A DNA stretch of 64,000 nucleotides from Squalus acanthias (Eukaryota): NCBI GenBank assembly GCA_030390025.1, contig CM059430.1, positions 153,512,001 to 153,576,000 of the forward strand, written 5' to 3'. Below are positions 1,115-64,000 of this stretch, piece by piece (within the stretch, counting starts at the first letter, position 1; every line of letters begins with the position of its first letter). The notes below the pieces were generated by a model, which saw only the letters and a list, made by a program, of their open reading frames with translations, ran no database searches and was not told where the DNA came from. The translations under genes were made by a program, and so were the position numbers.

Positions 1115-2192
1115 TTAGATTGCCAAATCATCTGATCTGGTCCGGTTGCTCTGTTTGCTGGTTTCACTATTCCTTCTCTCGTCAGTCGCGGAAATGTGGC
1201 TGTTGGGTAGTGCACTTATCTCTTCCAGTCTCCCCTGCTTGTCATCCATCATGGCAAAGTTGTCTCTGTTTTGCTTAGGTTGCCACATTGCCGTTGTAAG
1301 GATGGCACACAGAGTCCGTTTCTGCCAGCGGGGAGACGTTGAAGCCCGACTCCATCTTGTAGAGCTGTGGCCCGTTGTTGTTGGTGAAGTACTGGTAACT
1401 AGGGGCGCAGGGCCCCAACCTCTCACTGGGCAGTACGCCATTCTGCTTACAGGTGGCCTTTGAGGCTTGGCTGTCCCTGGTCCTCTCTCTACATTTCTTG
1501 AGTCCCAGATGGCATACTTCAATTAGGTTCAAAAGTAGTGACAGGCAAGCCATAACCAGCATGAATATAATGAAAATAGTCTTCTCAGTCGGGCGGGATA
1601 TGTAACAGTCGACGGTGTTAGGGCAAGGCCAGTAGTTACACTTGTAAAGAGGCTTCAGCTCAAAGCCGTAGAGATAGTACTGGGCCAATATGAAACCGAC
1701 TTCAAAGAGGGTTTTAAAAATGATATTAAACAAATAAGTGCGTAGAAGGACGCCTTGCATTCTAACTTTACCGTTTTCGTCCAGGGTCTGGCTTTTGATG
1801 TTCTTGGCATTCTGCACCAACGCCTCCTTGTCTCCGGGTGGATACCTGCTCAGCTTCTCTTTCTCCTTCTGCTTCTGTTTTTCCTCCATCCGCACCAAGT
1901 GAAAGATGTGGCCCAGGTAGACCAGCGTAGGGGTAGACACGAAGACGATCTGCAGCACCCAGAAGCGGATGTGGGAGATGGGGAAGATCCTGTCGTAGCA
2001 GACATTCTGACAGCCGGGCTGCTTGGTGTCGCAGGTGAAGAAGGACTGCTCGTCTCCCCAGACTTTCTCGGTGGCCGTCCCCAGCACCAGGATACGGAAA
2101 ATGAACAGGCATGTGAGCCACACCTTCCCTACCACGGTGGAGTGCTCCTGGGCACTTTCCAGCAGGTTCCCCAACAAACTCCAGTCTCCCAT
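1115..2192 (-). CDS. Gap junction alpha connexin (GJA3/Cx46-like subgroup, probably Cx39.9/GJA2-type), single coding exon with an apparent 1-bp frameshift near 1277
   Basis: ORF 1275-2192 starts [24 protein letters not shown] and has connexin Cys loops ([14 protein letters not shown]; [20 protein letters not shown]). The connexin tail (KQNRDNFAM...[14 protein letters not shown]) continues in another frame to 1115. Repaired length is 358 aa. Confidence 0.93.
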
Positions 2193-2209
2193 TCTTTCCT
2201 GCTTTCAGC

Positions 2210-2930: not shown

Positions 2931-3279
2931 CACGGGCAGCTGCACAATTATTCTTATATCTTTGTCAACTCACGGTTTTACTTTAAGGACATCCGATGAA
3001 TTAGGGCTGATGTCCCAAGGGCAGAAGTGTCCGAGTGTTTTGTCTTCTCGGGCAACTTATGTCCATATGATGCAGCCTCGCAGGCTATATATAAAGTTTA
3101 AATCTATGTCCCTTGCATTTGCATATAGCTCAAAATGCTGATGTTAACAAATCTTGGTGTTCTGATTTAGGATTTATCCACTAATGAGGAACAGTGCAGG
3201 GTACAGATCTTTTCAACTAAAAACAGAAGCTGCTGGAAATACTCAGCAGGTCAGGCAGCATCTGTGGAGAGAGAAACAG

Positions 3280-3316
3280 AGTTAACGTTTCAGGGCGATA
3301 ACCTTTCGTCAGAACT
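3280..3316 (-). ncRNA. Minimal type I hammerhead ribozyme motif (PLE family A)
   Basis: Minus strand: AGTT-CTGACGA-A-AGG(TTATCGC)CCT-GAAA-CG-TT-AACT; stem I AGTT/AACT, palindromic stem III ACGT. Confidence 0.8.
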
Positions 3317-8449: not shown

Positions 8450-8653
8450 ATGAGAAGTCGCACAACACCAGGTTATAGTCCAACAGTTTTATTTGAAATC
8501 ACGAGCTTTCGGAGCGCTGCTCCTTCGTCAGGTAGGAAGGAGCAGCGCTCCGAAAGCTCGTGATTTCAAATAAAACTGTTGGACTATAACCTGGTGTTGT
8601 GCGACTTCTAATGTTTGTCCACCCCAGTCCAACACCGGCATCTCCGCATCATG
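8450..8653 (+). mobile_element. Foldback mini-PLE (family B) with hammerhead
   Basis: 74-bp inverted arms 8453-8526 / 8536-8609 plus a ~44-bp tail ending CATCATG; TSD GCCAAATA(C/T)CTAA at 8437-8449 and 8654-8666. Confidence 0.9.
8499..8534 (-). ncRNA. Hammerhead ribozyme motif (family B), short stem I
   Basis: Minus strand: TAC-CTGACGA-A-GGAGC(AGC)GCTCC-GAAA-GC-TC-GTGA. Confidence 0.7.
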
Positions 8654-25732: not shown

Positions 25733-26694
25733 GACATGTCAATGTCAACACAATATTGATATCTACTCATTTTTGCTTGCAAGCAAGGAAAGAAAATAGA
25801 TATGTGCACTGCTATATTTGCAGGATCTTTTATTGCGTTTTTGGGAACTTTTACTAAAGATCTACCATGCCGGGAAAGATTGGCTGGATGACAGTTAGTA
25901 CCAAGTAAATCTTTCCTGTATGTGCTTCTCATTAAACAACTAGCAAAACTCAAAAAATATCCAATGCTACCTACCCTGATCAGTAGAGGGCAAGAGTGTA
26001 CCATTCTCAGATAATGGTATTGCTATCCTAAAAATGCAAAACATATTCAAGCCTTTTTTTTCCAAATTTTTCCCTTCTTTTGAGGGCAGTGACTCATGCT
26101 GGGCACAGTTCCATGGGCACCTGAAGTTCTTGGGTATCTTGTCTAAGTGGCCTTCCTTCACATGAGACTAGACATTGAGTCCTGACTCTCCATCTCTTAG
26201 AATGTGGGGTTGGAGTCTGGCCTTAATGGCAATTCAGTGCTCTTTATAGCAGATGTCACCAGTTGACTTTTCCCTTTCCTAACCCAGAACACTAAAGGCA
26301 ATTGCAGTGGCTTGGCACTAGCCAAACGGTGATCAGCAAAGATCAGAAATCAATCCTGTAGGAGGAGGTTGGTGTCAATGTGATCTATTTCATAGAATAA
26401 TAAAAAGTTTTAAAAATAAATCTTAAACAATATGTGCTGCAGAGTTGGAAGAGATGCTGAGTTGGCACTGATGTACTGGAGACACCAGCCAAACAGGTGG
26501 AGGACAAGGAGTTCATCTGGAATACTGTCACTGTTTGATTGGAGTCTCAGGAATAGGAAATGAAAGGGAGGGCAGATGATTTTTTTCCAATATGAAGAAA
26601 TATTAAGAAGAGAAATATATATTAAATTATATTTTTAAAATGTGGAAAAATTAAATTTAAAAATTAGAACATTATTGGTTTGTAATGAGAAAGA

Positions 26695-27055
26695 CAAAAG
26701 AAAGACTTGCATTTATATAGCGCCTTTCACAACCACCGGATGTCCCAAAGCACTTTACAGCCAATGAAGTACTTTTTGAAGTGTAGCACTGTTGTAATGT
26801 GGGAAACGCGGCAGCCAATTTGTGCACAGCAAACTCCCACAAACAGCAATGTGACCAGATAATCTGTTTTAGTGATGTTGATTGAGGGATAAACATTGGC
26901 CAGGACACCGAGGATAACCCCCCTGCCCTTCTTCAAAATAGTGCCATGGAATCTTTTATGTCCATCTGAGAGAACAGGTCTGGCCTCGGTTTAACGTCTC
27001 ATCAGAAAGATGGCACCTCTGACAGTGCAGCACTCCCTCAGCACTGCACTGGAGG
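26695..27055 (-). mobile_element. DeuSINE (SacSINE1-like), 5'-truncated
   Basis: Reverse complement of 28350-28710. Confidence 0.85.
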
Positions 27056-28254: not shown

Positions 28255-28712
28255 ATGTGGCTCAGTTGGTAGCACACTCGCCTCTGAGTCAGAAGGTTGT
28301 GGGTTCATGTCCCACTCCAGGGACTTGAGCACATAAAGCTAGGCTGACACTCCAGTGCAGTGCTGAGGGAGTGTTGCACTGTTGGAGGTGCCGTCTTTCA
28401 GTTGAGACGTTAAACCGAGGCCCCATCTGTTCTCTCAGGTGGATGTAAAAGATCCCATAGCACCATTTCGAAGAAGAGTAGGGGAGTTATCCCTGGTGTC
28501 CTGGCCAATATTTATCCCTCAACCAACGTAACAAAAAACAGATTATCTGGTTATTATCACATTGCTGTTTGTGGGACCTTGCTGTGTGCAAATTGGCTGC
28601 TGCGTTTCCCACATTACAACAGTGACATTACTTCATTGGCTGTAAAGCACTTTGAGACGTCCGGTGGTCGTGAAAGGCGCTATATAATTGCAATTATTTC
28701 TTTTTTCTTTTC
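28255..28712 (+). mobile_element. DeuSINE (SacSINE1-like), near full length
   Basis: tRNA head (TGGCTCAGTTGG; GGTTCATGTCC), Deu-domain GCACTGTTGGAGGTGCCGTCTTTCAG..GAGACGTTAAACCGAGGCCCC, L2-type tail. Confidence 0.88.
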
Positions 28713-29042
28713 TCAAACCTCTCCTCCAGAAACAAAAAGTTAACTACTCTTGTAACAGTGATTCCAGAGTTCTCCAGAGACACACACAGACTATTGAAAT
28801 TCAGCAATCACACAGCACTCACTGATATACTGGAAAGCTCTACGAATCAGTAACAAATCACTAATTTCATTAACTATCTTTTATAAATGATGTGTACTCT
28901 TAAAATAATAAAACTGTAACTTAACTTAAAACATTAAAAGAACCTTAACAACTTAAATTAAAATTGTATTCCCGGGCGTGATGATGATAAATTATGAGAA
29001 GTCGCACAACACCAGGTTATAGTCCAACAGTTTTATTTGAAA

Positions 29043-29079
29043 TCACAAGCTTTCGGAGCGCTGCTCCTTCGTCAGGTGA
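29043..29079 (-). ncRNA. Hammerhead ribozyme motif (family B), intact
   Basis: Minus strand: TCAC-CTGACGA-A-GGAGC(AGC)GCTCC-GAAA-GC-TT-GTGA. Confidence 0.82.
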
Positions 29080-29268
29080 AGTGAAGGAATACAAAATCGA
29101 CAAAGCATATATAGATAGAGAACAATGCCTGTGTAACTTACAATGGCAGACGACTACATTTAATCCTCCTGACTGTTTAAATGATTAAATGTAGTCCTCT
29201 GCCATTGTAAGTTACACATGCATTGTTCTCTATCTATATATGCTTTGTCGATTTTGTATTCCTTCACT

Positions 29269-29306
29269 TTACCTGACGAAGGAGCAGCCGCTCCGAAAGC
29301 TTGTGA
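29269..29306 (+). ncRNA. Hammerhead ribozyme motif (family B)
   Basis: TTAC-CTGACGA-A-GGAGC(AGCC)GCTCC-GAAA-GC-TT-GTGA. Confidence 0.8.
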
Positions 29307-29649
29307 TTTCAAATAAAACTATTGGACTATAACCTGGTGTTGTGCGACTTCTCACTTTTGTCCACCCCAGTCCAACACCGGCATCTCCGCATCATGATAA
29401 ATTATGTGTAACTCACTTCCAGGGATCTGTCATTTCCTTTGCAACACGCCCAGAGATCGTTCTTTCTCGATATAATCTTCTCCTGAGGTCAGATCATACT
29501 CTGTGTAATTCATTCCTCGAGTTCTGTGAAATTCACTCCCAGACATTTGTTATTCTCTATACAACTCACTCCCAAGGATCTATCATTCTTCATGCAACGC
29601 CTTCCCAGTCATTATATTTATACATAAAAAAGGACGTGAATGCTGACAA

Positions 29650-29772
29650 CGAACCGGAAGCGGACTGCGCATGCGCGTTACCGGTTCCGTGACGTCGTGG
29701 GTTTGTTAAAAAACATTAAATACCGGGAGAGAGCGGGCTGTGGGAAAAAATACCGGGAGAGAGCGTGCTGTT
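29650..29772. promoter_or_regulatory. CpG-rich ETS/NRF1/CRE motif cluster (candidate promoter)
   Basis: CCGGAAG 29654-29660, TGCGCATGCGC 29666-29676, TGACGTC 29690-29696, then duplicated AAATACCGGGAGAGAGCG(G/T)GCTGT. Confidence 0.45.
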
Positions 29773-36191: not shown

Positions 36192-38008
36192 ATGGATTCA
36201 CACAGACAGAAGGGCGTGCCAAGATTCCCTGATGCCTCCCTGGAAGTGCTGGTCCAGGGAGTCAGAGCACGCAGGGAGGTCCTCTTCCCTGCAGATGGAC
36301 GCAAAAGACCAGCCAGAGACACTAAGAGGGCATGGCTGGAGATCGCGGAGGAGGTCAGCAGCAGGGATGTCGTGAGGCGGACGTGGATCCAGTGCCGCAA
36401 AAGATTCAATGATCTCATGAGGTCAGGAAAGTTGAGTGCAATGCCACATTCACCTACATCCTGATGCGTGTGTCACCTAAACCTCATCACTGTGCCATCC
36501 CAAGCCTACTCCTGCACATCATTCCTCACACCAACCCACCTTACAGGTGCACCCATCCCTCTCTGTCTGTGCACCTACTCACATCCCCATCTGACTAACC
36601 ACCACTGGCACTCGCCCTCATCCTAATGCAATCAGAGCAAGTAACACCACAGAAGGAAGCTATTTGGCAATGTCACACCACTCCCTTATAGCCGCCCTCT
36701 ACAGATGTAGCCCATTCATTCCTTAAATTCATTCCATCACTCTCACTCAAAGTTCTCTTCTTTCCCTCCTTGCAGGAGAAGGGAGCCCAGAACAACAGGG
36801 AGAGGCAGAGAACCGGAGGTGGCCCTCCAATATTCACCAATTTGACTCCAGCAGAGGAGGAGGCATTTGAAATCTCTGGCGTTGCAGAGCTGCTGCCAGT
36901 GGGAGACAGAGAGAGGAGGACCTCCCAACAACCTGGTGACAGAATTAAATCTCATACAGCCACATGGGATACAACAGTCACTCATGGTGACTGATGTCAG
37001 CAGCCAGTGAAATGTCATCATGTGCATAATGGTAACGTTACACATTCTTATCATAAGACTTCTAATTCATCTCTTTACTCTACCACAGGTCCATCAAGTG
37101 CCCCCGCCACTGTCCAGCCAGAGGAGGAAGACAACTCCTCAGAGGAAGCTCCAGTCTCTTAGGGTGCACCATCACTATACCCATGTGCACCCAGCTCCAG
37201 CGCAGATATGTGCACGTCGGTAGGTCCTGCGAGACATAGAGTAGTGTTGTCACCTGGTGTCTCACAAATCACAAGTGAGCAAGAGCAGATGGTGGAGACA
37301 GGGACAGCACTGGAGAGTCCTGAGCTGCATGCAGATGCTGAACCTCTGGGGTCATTGAGAAAGAGGGTGATCTTGGAGGAGCAGCAACAATTGCATGAGG
37401 CTCTGGCAGCTTTTGCAGCCGTGACGTATGCGAATGTACAGAGAATGGAGGAGTCCATCTCCAACATGAGCACCACCATCTCGCAGGCGATGGTGACGAT
37501 GTGCTGTTACATGGAAAGGATGGCCACCTGCATCGAGCAGCAAATGCGCCAGTCCAACGAGAACATGCTTGCTGTGAACAATAGATTGCAAACGCTCATT
37601 GACCTCATCTCGAAGGGGCATACTAACGTAGACTTGGATGTTCATCACCCCTCTGATGTGCAGCAAGATGCTCTCCAGTTCCTTGCTAGCAGGGAAGGGC
37701 GGGTGGTCCATGAGAGGGATGATGGCGAGAGGGGACATGGAAGTGGGGGCTCTTCTTAAAGCTCTCCCACTTCTCCCCCGTTACCTCCCCCTCGGTCAGA
37801 GCCCCACACGCTGCCTCGGATCCCGATGGGTGAGTCTGTCCCTGTACCGTTGCAGGAGGAGCAGTCTTTGGCAGAGCCCTCACAGGTTCCAAAACCCAGA
37901 GGATGTCTGCCAAAAGTGTCTAAGCAGTTGCAGCAGGGAAGTGAGCAGCCTGCCTCTACCTCTGCTGAAGCCACTGTGGCTGCACCTCGTAGAAGCATGC
38001 GTAAATGA
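36192..38008 (+). pseudogene. Harbinger Myb/SANT-like DNA-binding protein, 3 exons (~36192-36430, 36776-36935, 37089-38008)
   Basis: RFPDASLEVLV..AWLEIAEEV..RTWIQCRKRFNDL; exon 2 NNRERQRTGGGPP; acceptors TTGCAG (36775) and CCACAG (37088); in-frame stops. Confidence 0.8.
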
Positions 38009-38321: not shown

Positions 38322-39550
38322 TTACGTAAATCGAGCTATTATGAGGCCATCCCGGGCCTCCCAGGCAGCAATGTGCGCCGCTGCTGGTGCCATCTCCATC
38401 TCAGGTTCCTCCACCTCCTCCTCCTCATGTTCCACCTGTTCCTCTTCCTCCAAAGAGTTTGTGCGCTCTGTGCCTTGCTCCTCCTGTAGCTCCAATCCTT
38501 GCTGCTGTGCTATGTTGTGCAGCGTGCAGCATACAACAATGATTCTGGAGACCCTGGCTGGTGAGTATTGAAGGGCTCCTCCAGATTCGTCAAGGCATCT
38601 GATGCGCATCTTCGTCATGCCGATTGCTTGCTCTATGACACATCTGGTGGGCATGTGGCTCTCATTATAGCGCTCCTCGGCCTCATTGCTTGGCCTTCTC
38701 AATAGTGTCATCAGCCACGTCTTCAGTGGATAGCCCTTGTCTCCAAGCAGCCAGCCGGTAAGTCTGTTTGGAGGTGCAAAGAGCTGAGGGAGGGTGGACT
38801 GGCACAGGATGAAAGAGTCATGACAGCTCCCTGGGAATCTGGCGCACACATGCTTGATGATCTTTTTATGGTTGCAGACGAGCTGCACATTGAGGGAGTG
38901 GAAGCCCTTCCGGTTCACAAACACTCCTGGTAGATCTGGGGGTGCCTTGGTGGCCACATGTGTGCAGTCGATGACACCCTGCACCTGTGGGAAGCCAGCC
39001 AGAGCTGTAAAGCCGCGTGCCCGCTCAGTAACACGGGCCTCATCAGTGGCAAAGTGTACATAATTGGCTGACTTGTGAAGCATGGCATTGGTCACCTGGG
39101 TGATGCATCTGTGGGCGGCCGACTGCGAGATCCTGCAAATGTCTGCTGCAGATCCCTGAAGGAACCTGAAGTGAAGAAGTTGAGGGCGGTGGTGACTTTG
39201 ACAGCCACTGGTAAGGCATGGCCACCAGGTCCTCTGGGCAGCAAGTCTTGTTTCAGCAAGCTACAAATGTCTGCGCCGACCTGGTGCGATAGCCTGAGCC
39301 TCCTGAGGTACTGCTGTTCGGTCATGTCAAGAAAGCTTATCCTCTGCCTGTATACACTGTGTTGGGGGTATCACCTCCAGCGCAGTGCACTCCTGCGCTG
39401 ATCCTCTCTCTCCTGTGGAGCTTCAGGTCGGTGAGGAGAAGGCTGCTAGTGTGGTTGCTGCTGCTGCTGGTGTGGCTGGTGTTGTTGGTGCTGGGGCTCA
39501 TCTTGGTCCATTTCTGAGGTCCAAGGTGAGACAGCATAAGCGGCACCCAT
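38322..39550 (-). pseudogene. Harbinger (HARBI1-like) DDE transposase, frameshifted
   Basis: [60 protein letters not shown]; N-terminal pieces are in other frames. Confidence 0.92.
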
Positions 39551-43954: not shown

Positions 43955-45394
43955 ATCACTACAGACTTCTTACAGAAACTCAGCACCCACGGACCAGTTG
44001 AACCAGGAACACTCCTCGCCACGATGGACGTATCGGGACTCTACACCAGTATCCCCCACGATGACGGCATCACTGCGACAGCCTCAGTACTCAACACCAA
44101 CAACAGCCAATCTCCAGACGCCATCCTACAACTCATCCGCTTCATCCTTGACCACAATGTCTTCACCTTCGACAACCATTTTTTTACCCAAACACACGGA
44201 ACAGCCATGGGGACCAAATTCGCACCCCAATACGCCAACATCTTCATGCACAAGTTCGAGCAAGACTTCTTCACTGCACAGGACCTCCAGCCAACGCTGT
44301 ACACCAGATACATCGACGACATTTTCTTCCTTTGGACCCATGGCGAAGGATCACTGAAAAGACTACACGATAACATAAACAAGTTCCATCCCACCATCAA
44401 ACTCACCATGGACTACTCCTCAGAATCGGTTTCATTCCTGGACACACGAATCTCCATCAAAGACGGACACCTCAGCACTTCACTCTACCGCAAGCCCACG
44501 GACAACCTCACGATGCTCCACTTCTCCAGCTTCCACCCTAACCACGTTAAAGAAGCCATCCCCTATGGACAAGCCCTGCGAATACACAGGATCTGCTCAG
44601 ACGAGGAGGAACGCGATGGACACCTACGGACGCTGAAAAACGCCCTCGTAAGAACGGGATATGACGCTCGACTCATCGATCGACAGTTCCGACGGGCCAC
44701 AGCGAAAAATCGCATAGACCTCCTCAGAAGGCAAACACGGGACACAACCAACAGGGTACCCTACGTCGTCCAGTACTTCCCCGGAGCGGAGAAACTACGC
44801 CATGTTCTTCGCAGCCTTCAACATGTCATCGATGACGACAAACACCTCGCTAAGGCCATCCCCACGCCTCCACTACTTGCCTTCAAACAGCCGCCTAACC
44901 TCAGAAGTACCATCGTTCGCAGCAAATTACCCAGCTTTCAGGATAACAGCGACCACGACACCACACAACCCTGCCATGGCAAACTCTGCAAGACATGCCA
45001 GATCATCAACACAGATACCATCATCACACGTGAGGACACTACCCACCAGGTACATGATACATACTCATGTGACTCGGCCAACGTTGTCTACCTCATACGT
45101 TGCAGGAAAGAATGCACCGCGGCATGGTACATCGGCGAGACCATGCAGACACTGAGACAACGTATGAACGAGCACCGCGCAACAATCGCCAGGCAGGATT
45201 GTTACCTCCCAGTCGGGGAACACTTCAGCAGTCAAGGACATTCAGCCTCGGATCTGCGGGTAAGCGTTCTCCAAGGCGACCTTAGGAAAACACGACAACG
45301 CAAAATCATCGAGCAGAAACTGATAGCCAAGTTCCGCACTCATGAAGACGGTCTCAATCGGGATCTTGGGTTTATGTCACGATACATGACGTGA
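43955..45394 (+). CDS. Penelope-like RT + GIY-YIG endonuclease ORF (family B), 5'-truncated but uninterrupted
   Basis: TMDVSGLYTSIP, GTAMGTKFAP, RYIDD, FLD, YRKPT, C-x2-C, VVYLIRC..WYIGET..RMNEH, GLN; the first ~30 aa of the called ORF come from flanking Harbinger DNA. Confidence 0.95.
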   Translation: MTTDFLQKLSTHGPVEPGTLLATMDVSGLYTSIPHDDGITATASVLNTNNSQSPDAILQLIRFILDHNVFTFDNHFFTQTHGTAMGTKFAPQYANIFMHKFEQDFFTAQDLQPTLYTRYIDDIFFLWTHGEGSLKRLHDNINKFHPTIKLTMDYSSESVSFLDTRISIKDGHLSTSLYRKPTDNLTMLHFSSFHPNHVKEAIPYGQALRIHRICSDEEERDGHLRTLKNALVRTGYDARLIDRQFRRATAKNRIDLLRRQTRDTTNRVPYVVQYFPGAEKLRHVLRSLQHVIDDDKHLAKAIPTPPLLAFKQPPNLRSTIVRSKLPSFQDNSDHDTTQPCHGKLCKTCQIINTDTIITREDTTHQVHDTYSCDSANVVYLIRCRKECTAAWYIGETMQTLRQRMNEHRATIARQDCYLPVGEHFSSQGHSASDLRVSVLQGDLRKTRQRKIIEQKLIAKFRTHEDGLNRDLGFMSRYMT

Positions 45395-45704
45395 TCCGGA
45401 CTCGAGTCGTCGTTGGCTTGTTCTCAGATGTGATTCCCAGTAAAAAAGTAAAAATTTTAAAGTTAATCGTTTTACATACAGACGGCAGCTTTTGACACAT
45501 TCGACCCCATGCGATTCCACCTCATTGTCTCAGTTGTATCTTGCTATGTCTTTGATGTGGTACCTTCCTGGCTGACCTGATTAACTTTATCACACCTCGG
45601 CAGATAAACAGTCAGGATGATTGAATTCAGTGGTCTGCAATTGTAAGTTACACATGCTTTGTTCTCTATCTATGTATGCTTTGACGATTCTGTATCTCCT
45701 CACT

Positions 45705-45742
45705 TCACCCGACGAAGGAGTTTTAACTCCGAAAGCTTGTGA
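45705..45742 (+). ncRNA. Hammerhead motif in the PLE 3' UTR (core U4 to C)
   Basis: TCAC-CCGACGA-A-GGAGT(TTTA)ACTCC-GAAA-GC-TT-GTGA. Confidence 0.7.
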
Positions 45743-45968
45743 TTTAAAATAAAACTGTTGGACTATAACCTGGTGTTGTGCGACCTCTCATCATATGTAT
45801 GACAGCCGAACTTGATCTATGCAACTCAAATACTTGTATAAGTGCCTGGCTAAAGTGACTTAAATTATCATCCATGTGGGCAAAATGATTTAAATTTATC
45901 TGATTAATAAGGGCCAACTGATCAGTAATGGTCTGGGTATTTATGGCCTACTGATTAAACAGATTAAT

Positions 45969-47480: not shown

Positions 47481-48553
47481 CTTCTTTTCCTGTCAGTGCA
47501 CGGCTTTTTAAAAACAGTTAATTACTTTGCACAACTTTTTAAAAACTTTAAATTTGACTTTGCTCAGCATTTTACAAACTGTCCATTTTACTTTGCCATT
47601 TTATTAAAAGTTTTTAAAAGTTTATAAAAGTTTTAAACATTTTCCCTGCAGTTACAATTAAATTTAAAAGGCCATTTAAACACTGCTCACCTCTCTTTAA
47701 AGTCCAAACTGATTTGGTGGGCGCGTCTCAGCCTCCTGTCAGTTTCGTCAATTTTTGTGGGCGTGTCTTGTACTGACGCCCCATGTGATCTGACTTTTGC
47801 AAGCGCGTTAACCAACGCTGCTCAGATATGTGAGAGTCAACGTCGGTGCAAATCTTAGGGCTTTTTATCGAAGTTCTCACCAGGAGGATTGAACAAGATT
47901 TGTGGGGATTTTTATGAGGTCAGCGTTGAGTGCCATCACTTCGCCGCTGACCGCAAATTACGGACCAATGTATTTCCTGTCATTTGAGCCATAGAAACAC
48001 TGAGTGGTAGGAACACTATACTGTCCAGGGATGCTATAGGGTTGCAGAAGGGGTTTATATTTTAAAGGATGATAACTAGTTCCATTAATCGCAGAACAAT
48101 CGATTGCACGAGATACGGTGGGAAAATTGAGTTATTTTCCTTCCCCCACTGAGGTTGACAACCCAGGAACCTGTGGAAAAAAAATTATTATGATCTTGAC
48201 TCCAGAAAATCAGCTGGGATCATAGATACAGGCATGGAACAGGCAGAAGCCATTATGGTAAAACGGAAAATCAACCGCTGTGTTTCGTAGGCCACAGAAT
48301 CAGCCCTTGTTTCACCAACTGCCAAATGCAAAGGCACACAGGGGTACCATATGGGTGGGATCACAATGATGACAATTCTTTGAAAACCTTAATAACTGCT
48401 CTCTCCACATTATAAAATAGCTCAGTCAGTTGAGCACTAGATGCAGGTCCTGAAGATCCTGACAGGGTCCATTCAGGTTTCATTCTTTTGAGGTGGAAAA
48501 AAATCAGTATTGCATCTTAGGTTGTACAAAGAAAGTAGGATACTATGCATAGA

Positions 48554-48983
48554 AACAACAACAGAAAACGCTGGAAAAACTCAGCAGGCCAGGCAACATC
48601 CGTGGAGAGAGAAACAGAGTTAACGTTTCAGGTCGAAACCCTTCGTCAGAACTGAGAAAAAAGCAGGAAATGAAACAGATAAAAAAGCAAGGGGGAGGCT
48701 GGGGGGAGGAATAACTATGGTAAGTAGAGACATTAAGAGATGCTCAAGGCAAGACGAGATGGTAATGGGACAGGTTAAGAAACAAAAGGTGGCTAGAAGT
48801 GTGAAGTGTGAAATGCTGGCAGAATGAGAGACAGCTGCCATAGGGGGAGAGAGAGAGAAAAAAAGGAAAAAGGCACGAACCAAAAGGGTGGATAAAATGT
48901 ATATATATATATATATATATGTGTGGTAGGGGCAGAGGTTATGATCTGAAATTGTTGAACTTTGAGTCCGGAAGGCTGTAAAG
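48554..48983 (-). mobile_element. 5'-truncated PLE family A insertion
   Basis: 13-bp TSD TACTATGCATAGA (48541-48553, 48984-48996); ORF end TLQPSGL as in 3566-3808. Confidence 0.9.
48618..48653 (-). ncRNA. Hammerhead ribozyme motif (family A) with UUCG loop
   Basis: Minus strand: AGTT-CTGACGA-A-GGGT(TTCG)ACCT-GAAA-CG-TT-AACT. Confidence 0.82.
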
Positions 48984-50859: not shown

Positions 50860-51773
50860 CGCCCTGAAATTCGCCTCTCCGGCTTGCCGCGGGGGTAAGG
50901 ATCGCGCGCGCACTTACCTACCGCTCCTGCCGTTGTGTTTTGGGCCCACGGGAACTTCAGCTCCTGGGCCTGCTCCAACTGCCGGTGCGCAGTGCTTGCG
51001 TGTCCCAGGGGCGCAGTTAGTGCGATGCGTCCCCTGGGATCACGTGGGCCATGGAGAGCCAATGGCAGCAGACCATCTTTCATTCATAGATTTGACAGGA
51101 GACCTGTCAAATCTGTGAATTGAAATCGGCCCCAAAAGAACAGCTAAACTTAAAATAAATTAAAAAAAACCATCACATTTATAAAATAACTATAGTTAAA
51201 TAAATTAACCACTTTAAACAAAAATTTAAATTTTTGAAAAAATTAAAATACTTTTTAAAATTGATAAAAATAAACTTACCTTTCTTTAAAGTATCTAAAA
51301 AAGATATACCTGTTGAAATGTTTTTTAAATTATACTTAATTAACCACTTACTTTGTTGAAAACGGCTCCTGTGCCTCCTTTTTATTAACTTTTGCTAACT
51401 TACCTGACGAAGGAGCGAACTGCTTCGAAAGCTTGTAAAATTAAATAAATCTGTTGGACTATAACCTGGTGTTGTGCGACTTCTCATTTTTGTCCACCCC
51501 AGTCCAACGCCGGCATCTCCACATCATGTCCTTTTTATTAGCGTAGGTTCTTCACTACTTACCCTCCCGTAGAAACCTGAAAAAAAATCTAAGTTTGCTG
51601 CGTGCGTGCAGCCTCTAGCGCGCACGCGGTTCACCTAGGAATCGCCCCTTCACCATACCGGAAGTTCCGGTTTCCCGCGCATGCGCAGTGCACGCAGGAA
51701 ACTGGCACTTCGGGACGCTTTACGGGTGAGTACGGACTGTGTACTCACCCGGGAAGGGCCGAATTTTTGGCCC
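50860..51773. mobile_element. Harbinger/PIF-type MITE, copy 2, carrying a mini-PLE insertion
   Basis: Near-identical to 15763-16526; flanks GAT/AAT. Confidence 0.88.
51388..51528 (+). mobile_element. 141-bp mini-PLE (family B): hammerhead + pLTR end + tail
   Basis: 12-bp TSD TCCTTTTTATTA; absent from MITE copy 1; TTAC-CTGACGA-A-GGAGC(GAACT)GCTTC-GAAA-GC-TT-GTAA at 51400-51438. Confidence 0.92.
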
Positions 51774-62579: not shown

Positions 62580-64000
62580 GGGCAGAGCACGGAGCACCAC
62601 GGGAGAGGCCTGAGGAGTTGAAACAGGGGCGACGGCGGCAGATTGGGGGAAAAAGGAGCGGAGAGGCAAAAAAAAACCAAGGAGTGACATCACAGGACAG
62701 CAGGTAGGTGATTGGTTGGTGAGTATTACAGCGTTTTTTTCCTCTAAGGTAGACAGTGGTTTAAACTAAGAGATGGGGAACTATAACTATTACTTTATTA
62801 AATCAATAACTTAACTAGATGAACTAGTTAATTAATATAAATATAAATAATCATTTGAATAAAAACTTTAAACTAATTAAATTAATTCAGGTTATCAATC
62901 AGCAAATACATAAAAGAAATTCTAGAGATGGCAGGGCAGGCTATGTGTCGGGACTGTAGTATGTGGGAGTTCGTGGACAGCGAGACCGTCCCGGATTCCC
63001 ACATCTGCAGGAAATGTCTCTGCCTTCAGTCACTCTGGCTCAGAGCCATTGAGCTGGAGTGCGAGTTAGAGACACTCCGAAACATAAGGGAGGAGGCGGA
63101 ATTTCTGGACAGTTTTATCCAGAATACAGTCACACCCCAGAGGAAAGCACAGGTTCAGGAAGGGGAGGGTGTGACTGTTAGGGAGCTGGGTAGCGTGGAC
63201 TTAGGAGAGGTTGAGAAGGAGGTCCCGCAGACACTGGTACGATAGCAAAATACTGCGGATGCTGGAAATCCGAAATAACAATAGAAAACGCTGGAAAAAC
63301 TCAGCAGGCCAGGCAGCATCCGTGGAGAGAGAAAGAGAGTTAACGTTTCAGGTCTGATGAAAGGTGATCGACCTGAAACGTTAACTCTCTTTCTCTCTCC
63401 ACGGATGCTGCCTGGCCTGCTGAGTTTTTCCAGCGTTTTCTATTGTTATCCCGCAGACACTGGTCCTGTCCAACAGGTACGAAGTACTCGCTACCTATGA
63501 GGACAAGGAGAAAGACTGCGGGGAGGACAGCCACAATGCAGACCGAGGCACCATGGCTCAGAAAGCTGTCCATGGGAGGGGGGAAGAGCAGAATAGAAAT
63601 GCGGTAGTGATAGGGAGTTCCATAATTAGAGGGATAGATAGAGTCCTCTGCAGCCAAGATCGAGAATTCCGAAGGGTGTGTTGCCTACCTGGTGCCAGGG
63701 TAAGGGATAAGTTGAGGCGACTGGAGAGGAATTTGGAAAGGGAGGGGGTAAATTCAGTTGGCGTGGTTCATGTCGGAACAAACGACATAGGTAGGAACAG
63801 GTAGGAGGTCCTGCTGAAGGAGTATCAGGAGTTATCAACTAAATTAAAAAGCAGGACCTCGAGGGTAATACTCTCTGGATTATTGCCCAAGCCACGTGCA
63901 AATTGGCATAGAAGCAGACAGATCAGGAGAATTAACATGTGGCTAAAGGGCTGGTGTGAGAAAGAGGGGTTCCTTTTCATGGGACATTGGCACCAGTACT
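62580..64000 (+). mobile_element. CR1 LINE 5' UTR and ORF1 (zinc finger + SGNH esterase), continuing beyond the window
   Basis: MAGQAMCRDCSMWE..HICRKC; VVIGSSIIRG, CLPGARVRD, VVHVGTNDIG; ORF1 interrupted at 63239-63448. Confidence 0.88.
63239..63448 (-). mobile_element. Foldback mini-PLE (family A) inserted in CR1 ORF1
   Basis: 80-bp inverted arms 63275-63354 / 63370-63449, ~36-bp tail on the left, 16-bp TSD TCCCGCAGACACTGGT; hammerhead core CTGATGA-A-AGGT(GATCG)ACCT-GAAACGTT at the loop. Confidence 0.92.

Follow-up and report, generated by a model that had tools for sequence, protein, structure and literature searches.

Penelope-like elements (PLEs) with an endonuclease (EN+) are known for complex insertions, in which an inverted, 5′-truncated copy is accompanied by a tail of 30-40 bp on one side only and the whole is flanked by a target-site duplication (TSD) (PMC8557442 Fig. 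2; PMC3846280). In the case of PAc (Poseidon of Anolis), both strands are cut and extended, two reverse transcriptase (RT) start sites bracket the tail, and hammerhead cleavage is dispensable for insertion in vitro (PMC11167929). Self-priming on an antisense template has been put forward as an alternative route (PMC3846280). Among the minimal hammerheads of PLEs, a tested monomer gave no cleavage and dimers cleaved weakly (PMC4209133), and a CX2-5CxxC linker marks the Neptune/Nematis elements (PMC8557442).

Here we describe a hairpin-forming insertion in a 64,000-nucleotide stretch of the Squalus acanthias genome (GCA_030390025.1, contig CM059430.1, positions 153,512,001 to 153,576,000), which is referred to as the window. 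We conclude, with a probability of roughly 0.87, that it is a single, lineage-specific PLE insertion composed of two 5′-truncated ends placed head-to-head, which was likely double-primed and is likely an inert by-product.

Two head-to-head copies with a tail on one side only

The left half of the insertion is an inverted, 5′-truncated, tail-less pLTR copy on the minus strand (28995-29179), and the right arm is a direct, 5′-truncated pLTR copy on the plus strand (29183-29354). When 28995-29165 was aligned to 29183-29354 in inverted orientation, 167 of the 171 arm pairs matched; 4 positions were mismatched and a single base was inserted. The loop of the hairpin comprises 14 extra bases of element sequence, which extend the left arm unpaired (29166-29179, minus strand), and 3 filler bases at the head-to-head junction (29180-29182). 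The hairpin is asymmetric: the right arm alone is extended by 42 bp (29355-29396, plus strand), a one-sided PLE tail that ends in the element's start codon, namely that of the 892-aa ORF of the tandem full-length copies. A direct repeat of 13 bp, at 28984-28996 and 29394-29406, represents the left and right copies of the TSD. The first 3 bases of the left copy double as the edge of an adjoining LINE fragment, and because the duplication includes the final 3 bases of the tail, its length can be read as 10 or 13 bp. As in the complex insertions of EN+ PLEs, an inverted, 5′-truncated copy is thus found at the 5′ end, together with a one-sided tail and a TSD.

Folding of the 423-nt RNA gave -303.9 kcal/mol (z -39), and 0 of 100 shuffled sequences folded equally well. 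The initial annotation had described near-perfect 171-bp inverted arms of PLE origin, bounded by a 13-bp TSD, and had proposed that a transcript of either strand would carry a ribozyme together with its antisense copy. The arms and the duplication are real, such an RNA from either strand is predicted to form a long, nearly perfect duplex, and the PLE origin is supported by the family membership described below.

The insertion belongs to a large family of fold-back copies

The right arm and tail were 97-99% identical to 39 other loci (the best 40 of 1,783 candidates scored), and a 27-mer of the arm, which is common to several subfamilies, had 93,351 exact matches in the 3.71-Gb genome as compared with 0 for the reversed control. 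Full-length units are arranged in tandem with a period of 3,138 bp, and each 892-aa ORF starts at the last codon of the tail; the pLTRs of these tandem units therefore include the ORF start, with the start codon at the tail end. As expected of an EN+ PLE, the single ORF combines an RT (RVT_1, E 6.5e-9) with a C-terminal GIY-YIG endonuclease (E 4.6e-4, just under the curated cutoff). The linker between the RT and the endonuclease is CX4CxxC and, judged by this motif, the family carries the Neptune/Nematis mark. Tandem arrays, such as C2:211213300-211223200, hold complete PLE units in which the 892-aa ORF is open and adjacent units are nearly identical, so this family may have remained active. 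None of the four tandem arrays that were fetched, which are 84-90% identical to the arms, yielded a full-length member of the subfamily to which the hairpin belongs.

The window itself contains a longer PLE copy at 43956-45790 (plus strand), from which the initial annotation had derived the hairpin on the grounds that the arms match its 3′ UTR at 45640-45790. The homology is genuine (45617-45790), but it amounts to only 86%, well below that of the 39 other loci; expressed per 160 bases, this copy differs from the arms at 18-20 positions, whereas other loci differ at 3-4. It also lacks the tail, and its hammerhead core and helix II are altered, so the derivation does not hold. The copy, which encodes RT, CX4CxxC linker and GIY-YIG sequences, is a relative rather than the parent: a 5′-truncated, tail-less stub of a sister subfamily, in which the first ~1,240 bases of the unit are missing and the 892-aa ORF is entered near codon 415.

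Pairs of hammerhead cores lying within 300 bp of each other were head-to-head in 5,020 cases genome-wide and tail-to-tail in 24. When the neighbours within 3.5 kb of 100 consecutive hits on C1 were inspected, 31 head-to-head, 3 tail-to-tail and 5 same-strand pairs were found. Exactly one tail was present in 30 of the 31 head-to-head pairs, and 27 of the 31 were flanked by a duplication of at least 8 bp, mostly 12-14 bp, as compared with 20 of 930 mismatched-flank controls. The loci closest to the hairpin gave a similar picture, with an inverted arm in 17 of 30 (the best of 1,783 candidates; three of the 30 share flanks), a duplication of at least 8 bp in 21 of the 23 that had both ends in view, and, wherever its end was visible (11 of 11 loci), an inverted arm that failed to reach the end of the tail by 35-47 nt. 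Scaling from 27 per 100 gives an estimate of ~25,000 hairpins in the genome, which is rough, because all sampled hits lay at the end of a single chromosome and 200 kb drawn at random contained only 2 insertions, of which 1 was a hairpin. With 40-60% of the family's insertions folding back, near-perfect hairpins number at least 5,000, and possibly some 25,000, in the genome. The present locus has no special claim among these thousands and is an ordinary member of the published form.

Related copies were also seen elsewhere. Another hairpin of the present family, of smaller size, lies at 8450-8653, with 77-bp arms (within 8450-8612), a tail on the right and a complete hammerhead core on the minus arm only. 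A fold-back with 80-bp perfect arms at 63275-63449 belongs to an unrelated hammerhead-bearing PLE family, which is also present at 2404-2512 / 3207-3315 and at 48543-48643; Rfam miRNA hits on this family's hairpin were below the gathering score. A solo tailed stub at 51400-51528 belongs to yet another subfamily and differs in loop II. A single kind of junction is found in many of the smallest hairpins: one arm stops at the putative start base, its partner one base later.

Target site, age and surroundings

For the right flank, organisms B and F contributed a single contig each, diverging by 6% and 8%, respectively. Both contigs match from 29394, and the 27 and 23 letters ahead of this position are unlike the window. 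That the match begins at 29394 favours the 13-bp reading of the duplication, and the point at which it stops indicates an empty orthologous site in organisms B and F. None of the 15 joints listed for organism A, for which 177 more exist, was an empty-site joint, and coverage in runs X7 and X9 does not reach the unique flank. Relative to the family majority, 2 sites are changed in the left arm and 3 in the right, about 1.5% each. In comparisons aimed at a possible two-template origin of the arms, the 2 left-arm variants also occur in a few other copies, and the 3 right-arm variants are private or rare (47 close arms, 210 hits). In a set of 12 hairpins, the two arms of one hairpin differed from each other by 1.6 bases per 160, as compared with 2.6 from other loci; the corresponding number in this hairpin is 5.

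Outside the insertion, the left flank is a short end fragment of a multi-copy repeat (28900-28986, minus strand), which we take to be the end of a Tx1/L1-like LINE. The LINE-like fragment (28883-28996) has an apparent 10-bp duplication of its own, the right copy of which is the PLE target. Since the left flank is the end of another repeat, the PLE would have landed later at the edge of that element, and the nested order is probably LINE first, PLE second. Further to the left, two inverted SINE copies, presumably of the Deu type, lie 1.3 kb apart (26690-27054 / 28350-28710; 86-89% alike) and constitute another possible duplex immediately beside the hairpin.

To the right, the promoter-like cluster noted in the initial annotation does exist (29626-29771, plus strand), but it loses its significance as a multi-copy dispersed repeat, detected at 75-84% in all 39 other scored loci (the best 40 of 109 candidates). 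It is therefore no evidence of a host promoter. The repeat has a head of ~95 bp, rich in motifs that we take to be NRF1/ETS-like, followed by a 30-bp minisatellite that reaches more than 1.5 kb, and it is present in organisms B and F as well. Elsewhere in the window, a Harbinger-like DDE_Tnp_4 transposase ORF (38322-39260, minus strand; E 9.8e-32) lies near another ORF (37163-37759, plus strand).

The hammerhead motifs are minimal and predicted to be buried in a read-through RNA

Each arm had initially been credited with a full hammerhead. Core boxes and helix II are indeed located at 29043-29079 (minus strand) and 29269-29306 (plus strand), but both are minimal type I motifs: helix II has 5 bp, helix I has 4 bp and helix III is replaced by a single pair enclosing a 4-nt palindrome; in the right arm, one helix I pair is now a wobble. 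The core boxes, an extra 5′ base at helix II, the short helix I and the palindrome are those of minimal PLE hammerheads. The cleavage-site base is U, which is the majority state in the family (67 of 77 motifs), and it is on the basis of the one-pair helix III and this U that the motifs were classed as minimal. A canonical, monomer-active hammerhead would differ in having a stable helix III and a match to an Rfam model, and a scan of the entire 64-kb window detected no Rfam hammerhead family at E<=1. Rfam miRNA-precursor hits on 29119-29229 were rejected, being weak, below gathering scores and merely a reflection of the hairpin. Copy 5′ ends showed no peak at the hammerhead cleavage site in 100 sampled arms.

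Owing to the head-to-head geometry, the antisense arm is transcribed first on both strands: the antisense and sense motifs are at positions 80 and 290, respectively, of the plus-strand RNA and at 122 and 332 of the minus-strand RNA. In the folded read-through RNA, the probability of helix II was about 1e-15, and a fold constrained to contain helices I and II was less favourable by 63 and 60 kcal/mol. The proposal that ribozyme folding competes with the hairpin is not supported by these values; the predicted outcome is a plain duplex in which the hammerheads are buried, with no real competition. Because only one sense motif is present per strand, no dimer is available in cis. The hammerheads are passengers of the pLTR and depend on a same-strand partner.

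Origin and possible activity of the hairpin

The structure would be accounted for if the endonuclease cut the two target strands about 13 bp apart, and if reverse transcription was primed by one cut strand at the distal start, that is, at the tail end on the ORF start codon, and by the other about 40 nt upstream. Both cDNAs would halt early and would then be joined in the middle by end-joining. The 3′ end of a full-length mRNA probably served as template, since the arms begin 83 and 97 nt upstream of the initiator-like base of the putative pLTR start. By analogy with the in vitro data obtained in another species, double priming from both cut strands is likely. Inverted ends, a duplication and a high copy number could also belong to a self-mobile unit, MITE- or retrozyme-like, that is copied whole, and PLE-derived retrozymes occur in vertebrates (bioRxiv 10.64898/2026.07.22.740005). 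We nevertheless give this idea practically no credence, because the arm lengths and central junctions of the hairpins vary continuously between 80 and about 2,900 bp, the ends are asymmetric, and the central junction of this hairpin recurs in none of the 39 other top loci (29 fetched). For a MITE, a uniform, symmetric unit would be expected, which the variable junctions and lengths and the asymmetric ends contradict; a non-LTR retrozyme needs a same-strand tandem with two hammerheads, whereas here there is one motif per strand.

The arms of the insertion could act as start sites of transcription. A TATA-like box lies 31 nt ahead of an initiator-like base in both arms, at 29235/29266 in the right arm (putative core promoter 29235-29266, plus strand) and at 29113/29082 in the left (29082-29113, minus strand), so the hairpin likely carries a putative, outward-facing promoter twice. 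Genome-wide, 1,626 copies start at the initiator-like base as compared with 388 two bases later, and this peak fits an RT that runs off the 5′ end of the RNA. Exactly this base is the start of 11 of 100 sampled arms, a larger start class at +6 in this sample reflecting subfamily divergence. A cap-derived extra base before the putative start was considered but is not claimed, because the same letter is contributed by the partner arm and also appears in the control listing. If the insertion were an outward core-promoter pair, each arm would start a short ribozyme RNA that runs into the flank without the antisense arm. The motif spacing and the excess of starts at the initiator-like base speak for this, helix II is predicted to form in RNAs begun at +1 (P 0.8-1.0), and Pen2a_Av has a comparable TATA/Inr layout (PMC3846280). 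On the other hand, a lone core promoter may not fire, the internal promoter described for Penelope of D. virilis overlaps a 5′-UTR intron, some of the +1 calls are possibly subfamily boundaries, and a monomeric ribozyme is expected to be inactive (PMC4209133). We consider activity of this kind very improbable. Passive transcription, for example within an intron, would instead yield a duplex that is edited by ADAR or diced and that, together with sister hairpins, dampens the family. A 171-bp duplex at -304 kcal/mol would be a suitable substrate, the intact ORFs of the family provide a target for silencing, and the site may lie in the 5′ intron of a gene whose intact connexin coding exon is found at 1275-2204 (minus strand; PF00029, E 3.8e-98). 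In D. melanogaster transformed with Penelope, siRNAs precisely matched inverted regions (PMC3681739; PMC3136932), but they silenced Penelope inefficiently (PMC3681739). The family has reached about 1e5 matches despite its hairpins, and the supposed promoter close by is a repeat. Endo-siRNA production, moreover, is weak in most vertebrate somatic cells. This scenario is improbable for the locus, although, on the Drosophila precedent, the hairpin may have a silencing role.

The likely inert, double-primed PLE insertion therefore remains the preferred reading. Two runs guessed to be RNA (X11 and X17; contigs only) matched the repeat parts, but hardly any contig fell on the unique flanks or on the motif cluster; being contigs, they speak neither for nor against transcription. 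The literature on cartilaginous-fish PLEs yielded nothing on small RNAs or start sites in a search that lay mostly outside subscription papers. As a single locus the hairpin matters little. As a population, the hairpins provide thousands of clean junctions that map the two RT start sites of a vertebrate PLE, its staggered cut (mostly 12-14 bp) and its likely transcription start, and the reverse-transcription starts, the cut and the transcription start are steps that are still unsettled for PLEs. The population also makes the idea of self-generated siRNAs, developed for Drosophila, testable in a vertebrate. It is an unlikely but conceivable extension that the 5,000 to ~25,000 hairpins together amount to a dsRNA source on the scale of Alu in a vertebrate, the longer ones with outward TATA promoters. 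If true, hairpin dsRNA would feed ADAR or Dicer against a retroelement with intact ORFs.

Comparison with described systems

The published systems resemble the hairpin in different respects. The motifs described by Cervera and de la Pena in 2014 (PMC4209133) share the minimal type I form, the extra base before helix II and the palindrome instead of helix III, and opposite-strand pairs 100-700 bp apart, which were already known from Schistosoma, are similar to the present hairpin; the host and the family are different, and here U at the cleavage site is the majority state. Penelope of Drosophila (PMC3681739, PMC3136932) likewise makes long inverted repeats that could yield dsRNA. In Drosophila the siRNAs were sequenced and were insufficient to silence the element; here dsRNA is a prediction.

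PAc (PMC11167929) has two RT start sites around the tail and both strands are processed, as would be the case here. It differs in the linker, which in the present family is of the CX2-5CxxC type known from Neptune/Nematis elements, and in the position of the start codon, which is about 90 nt downstream of the hammerhead in this family but inside the hammerhead in PAc. The closest match in layout is Pen2a_Av and the Pen2 derivative (PMC3846280), in which head-to-head arms, one tail (30-40 bp) and a TSD are found; the pLTR of Pen2a_Av also includes the ORF start and has TATA/Inr-like motifs. In contrast to these elements, the present insertion has a 42-bp tail that runs to the start codon, occurs at a far higher copy number and lacks the ORF entirely, so that the arms form a compact 171-bp hairpin.
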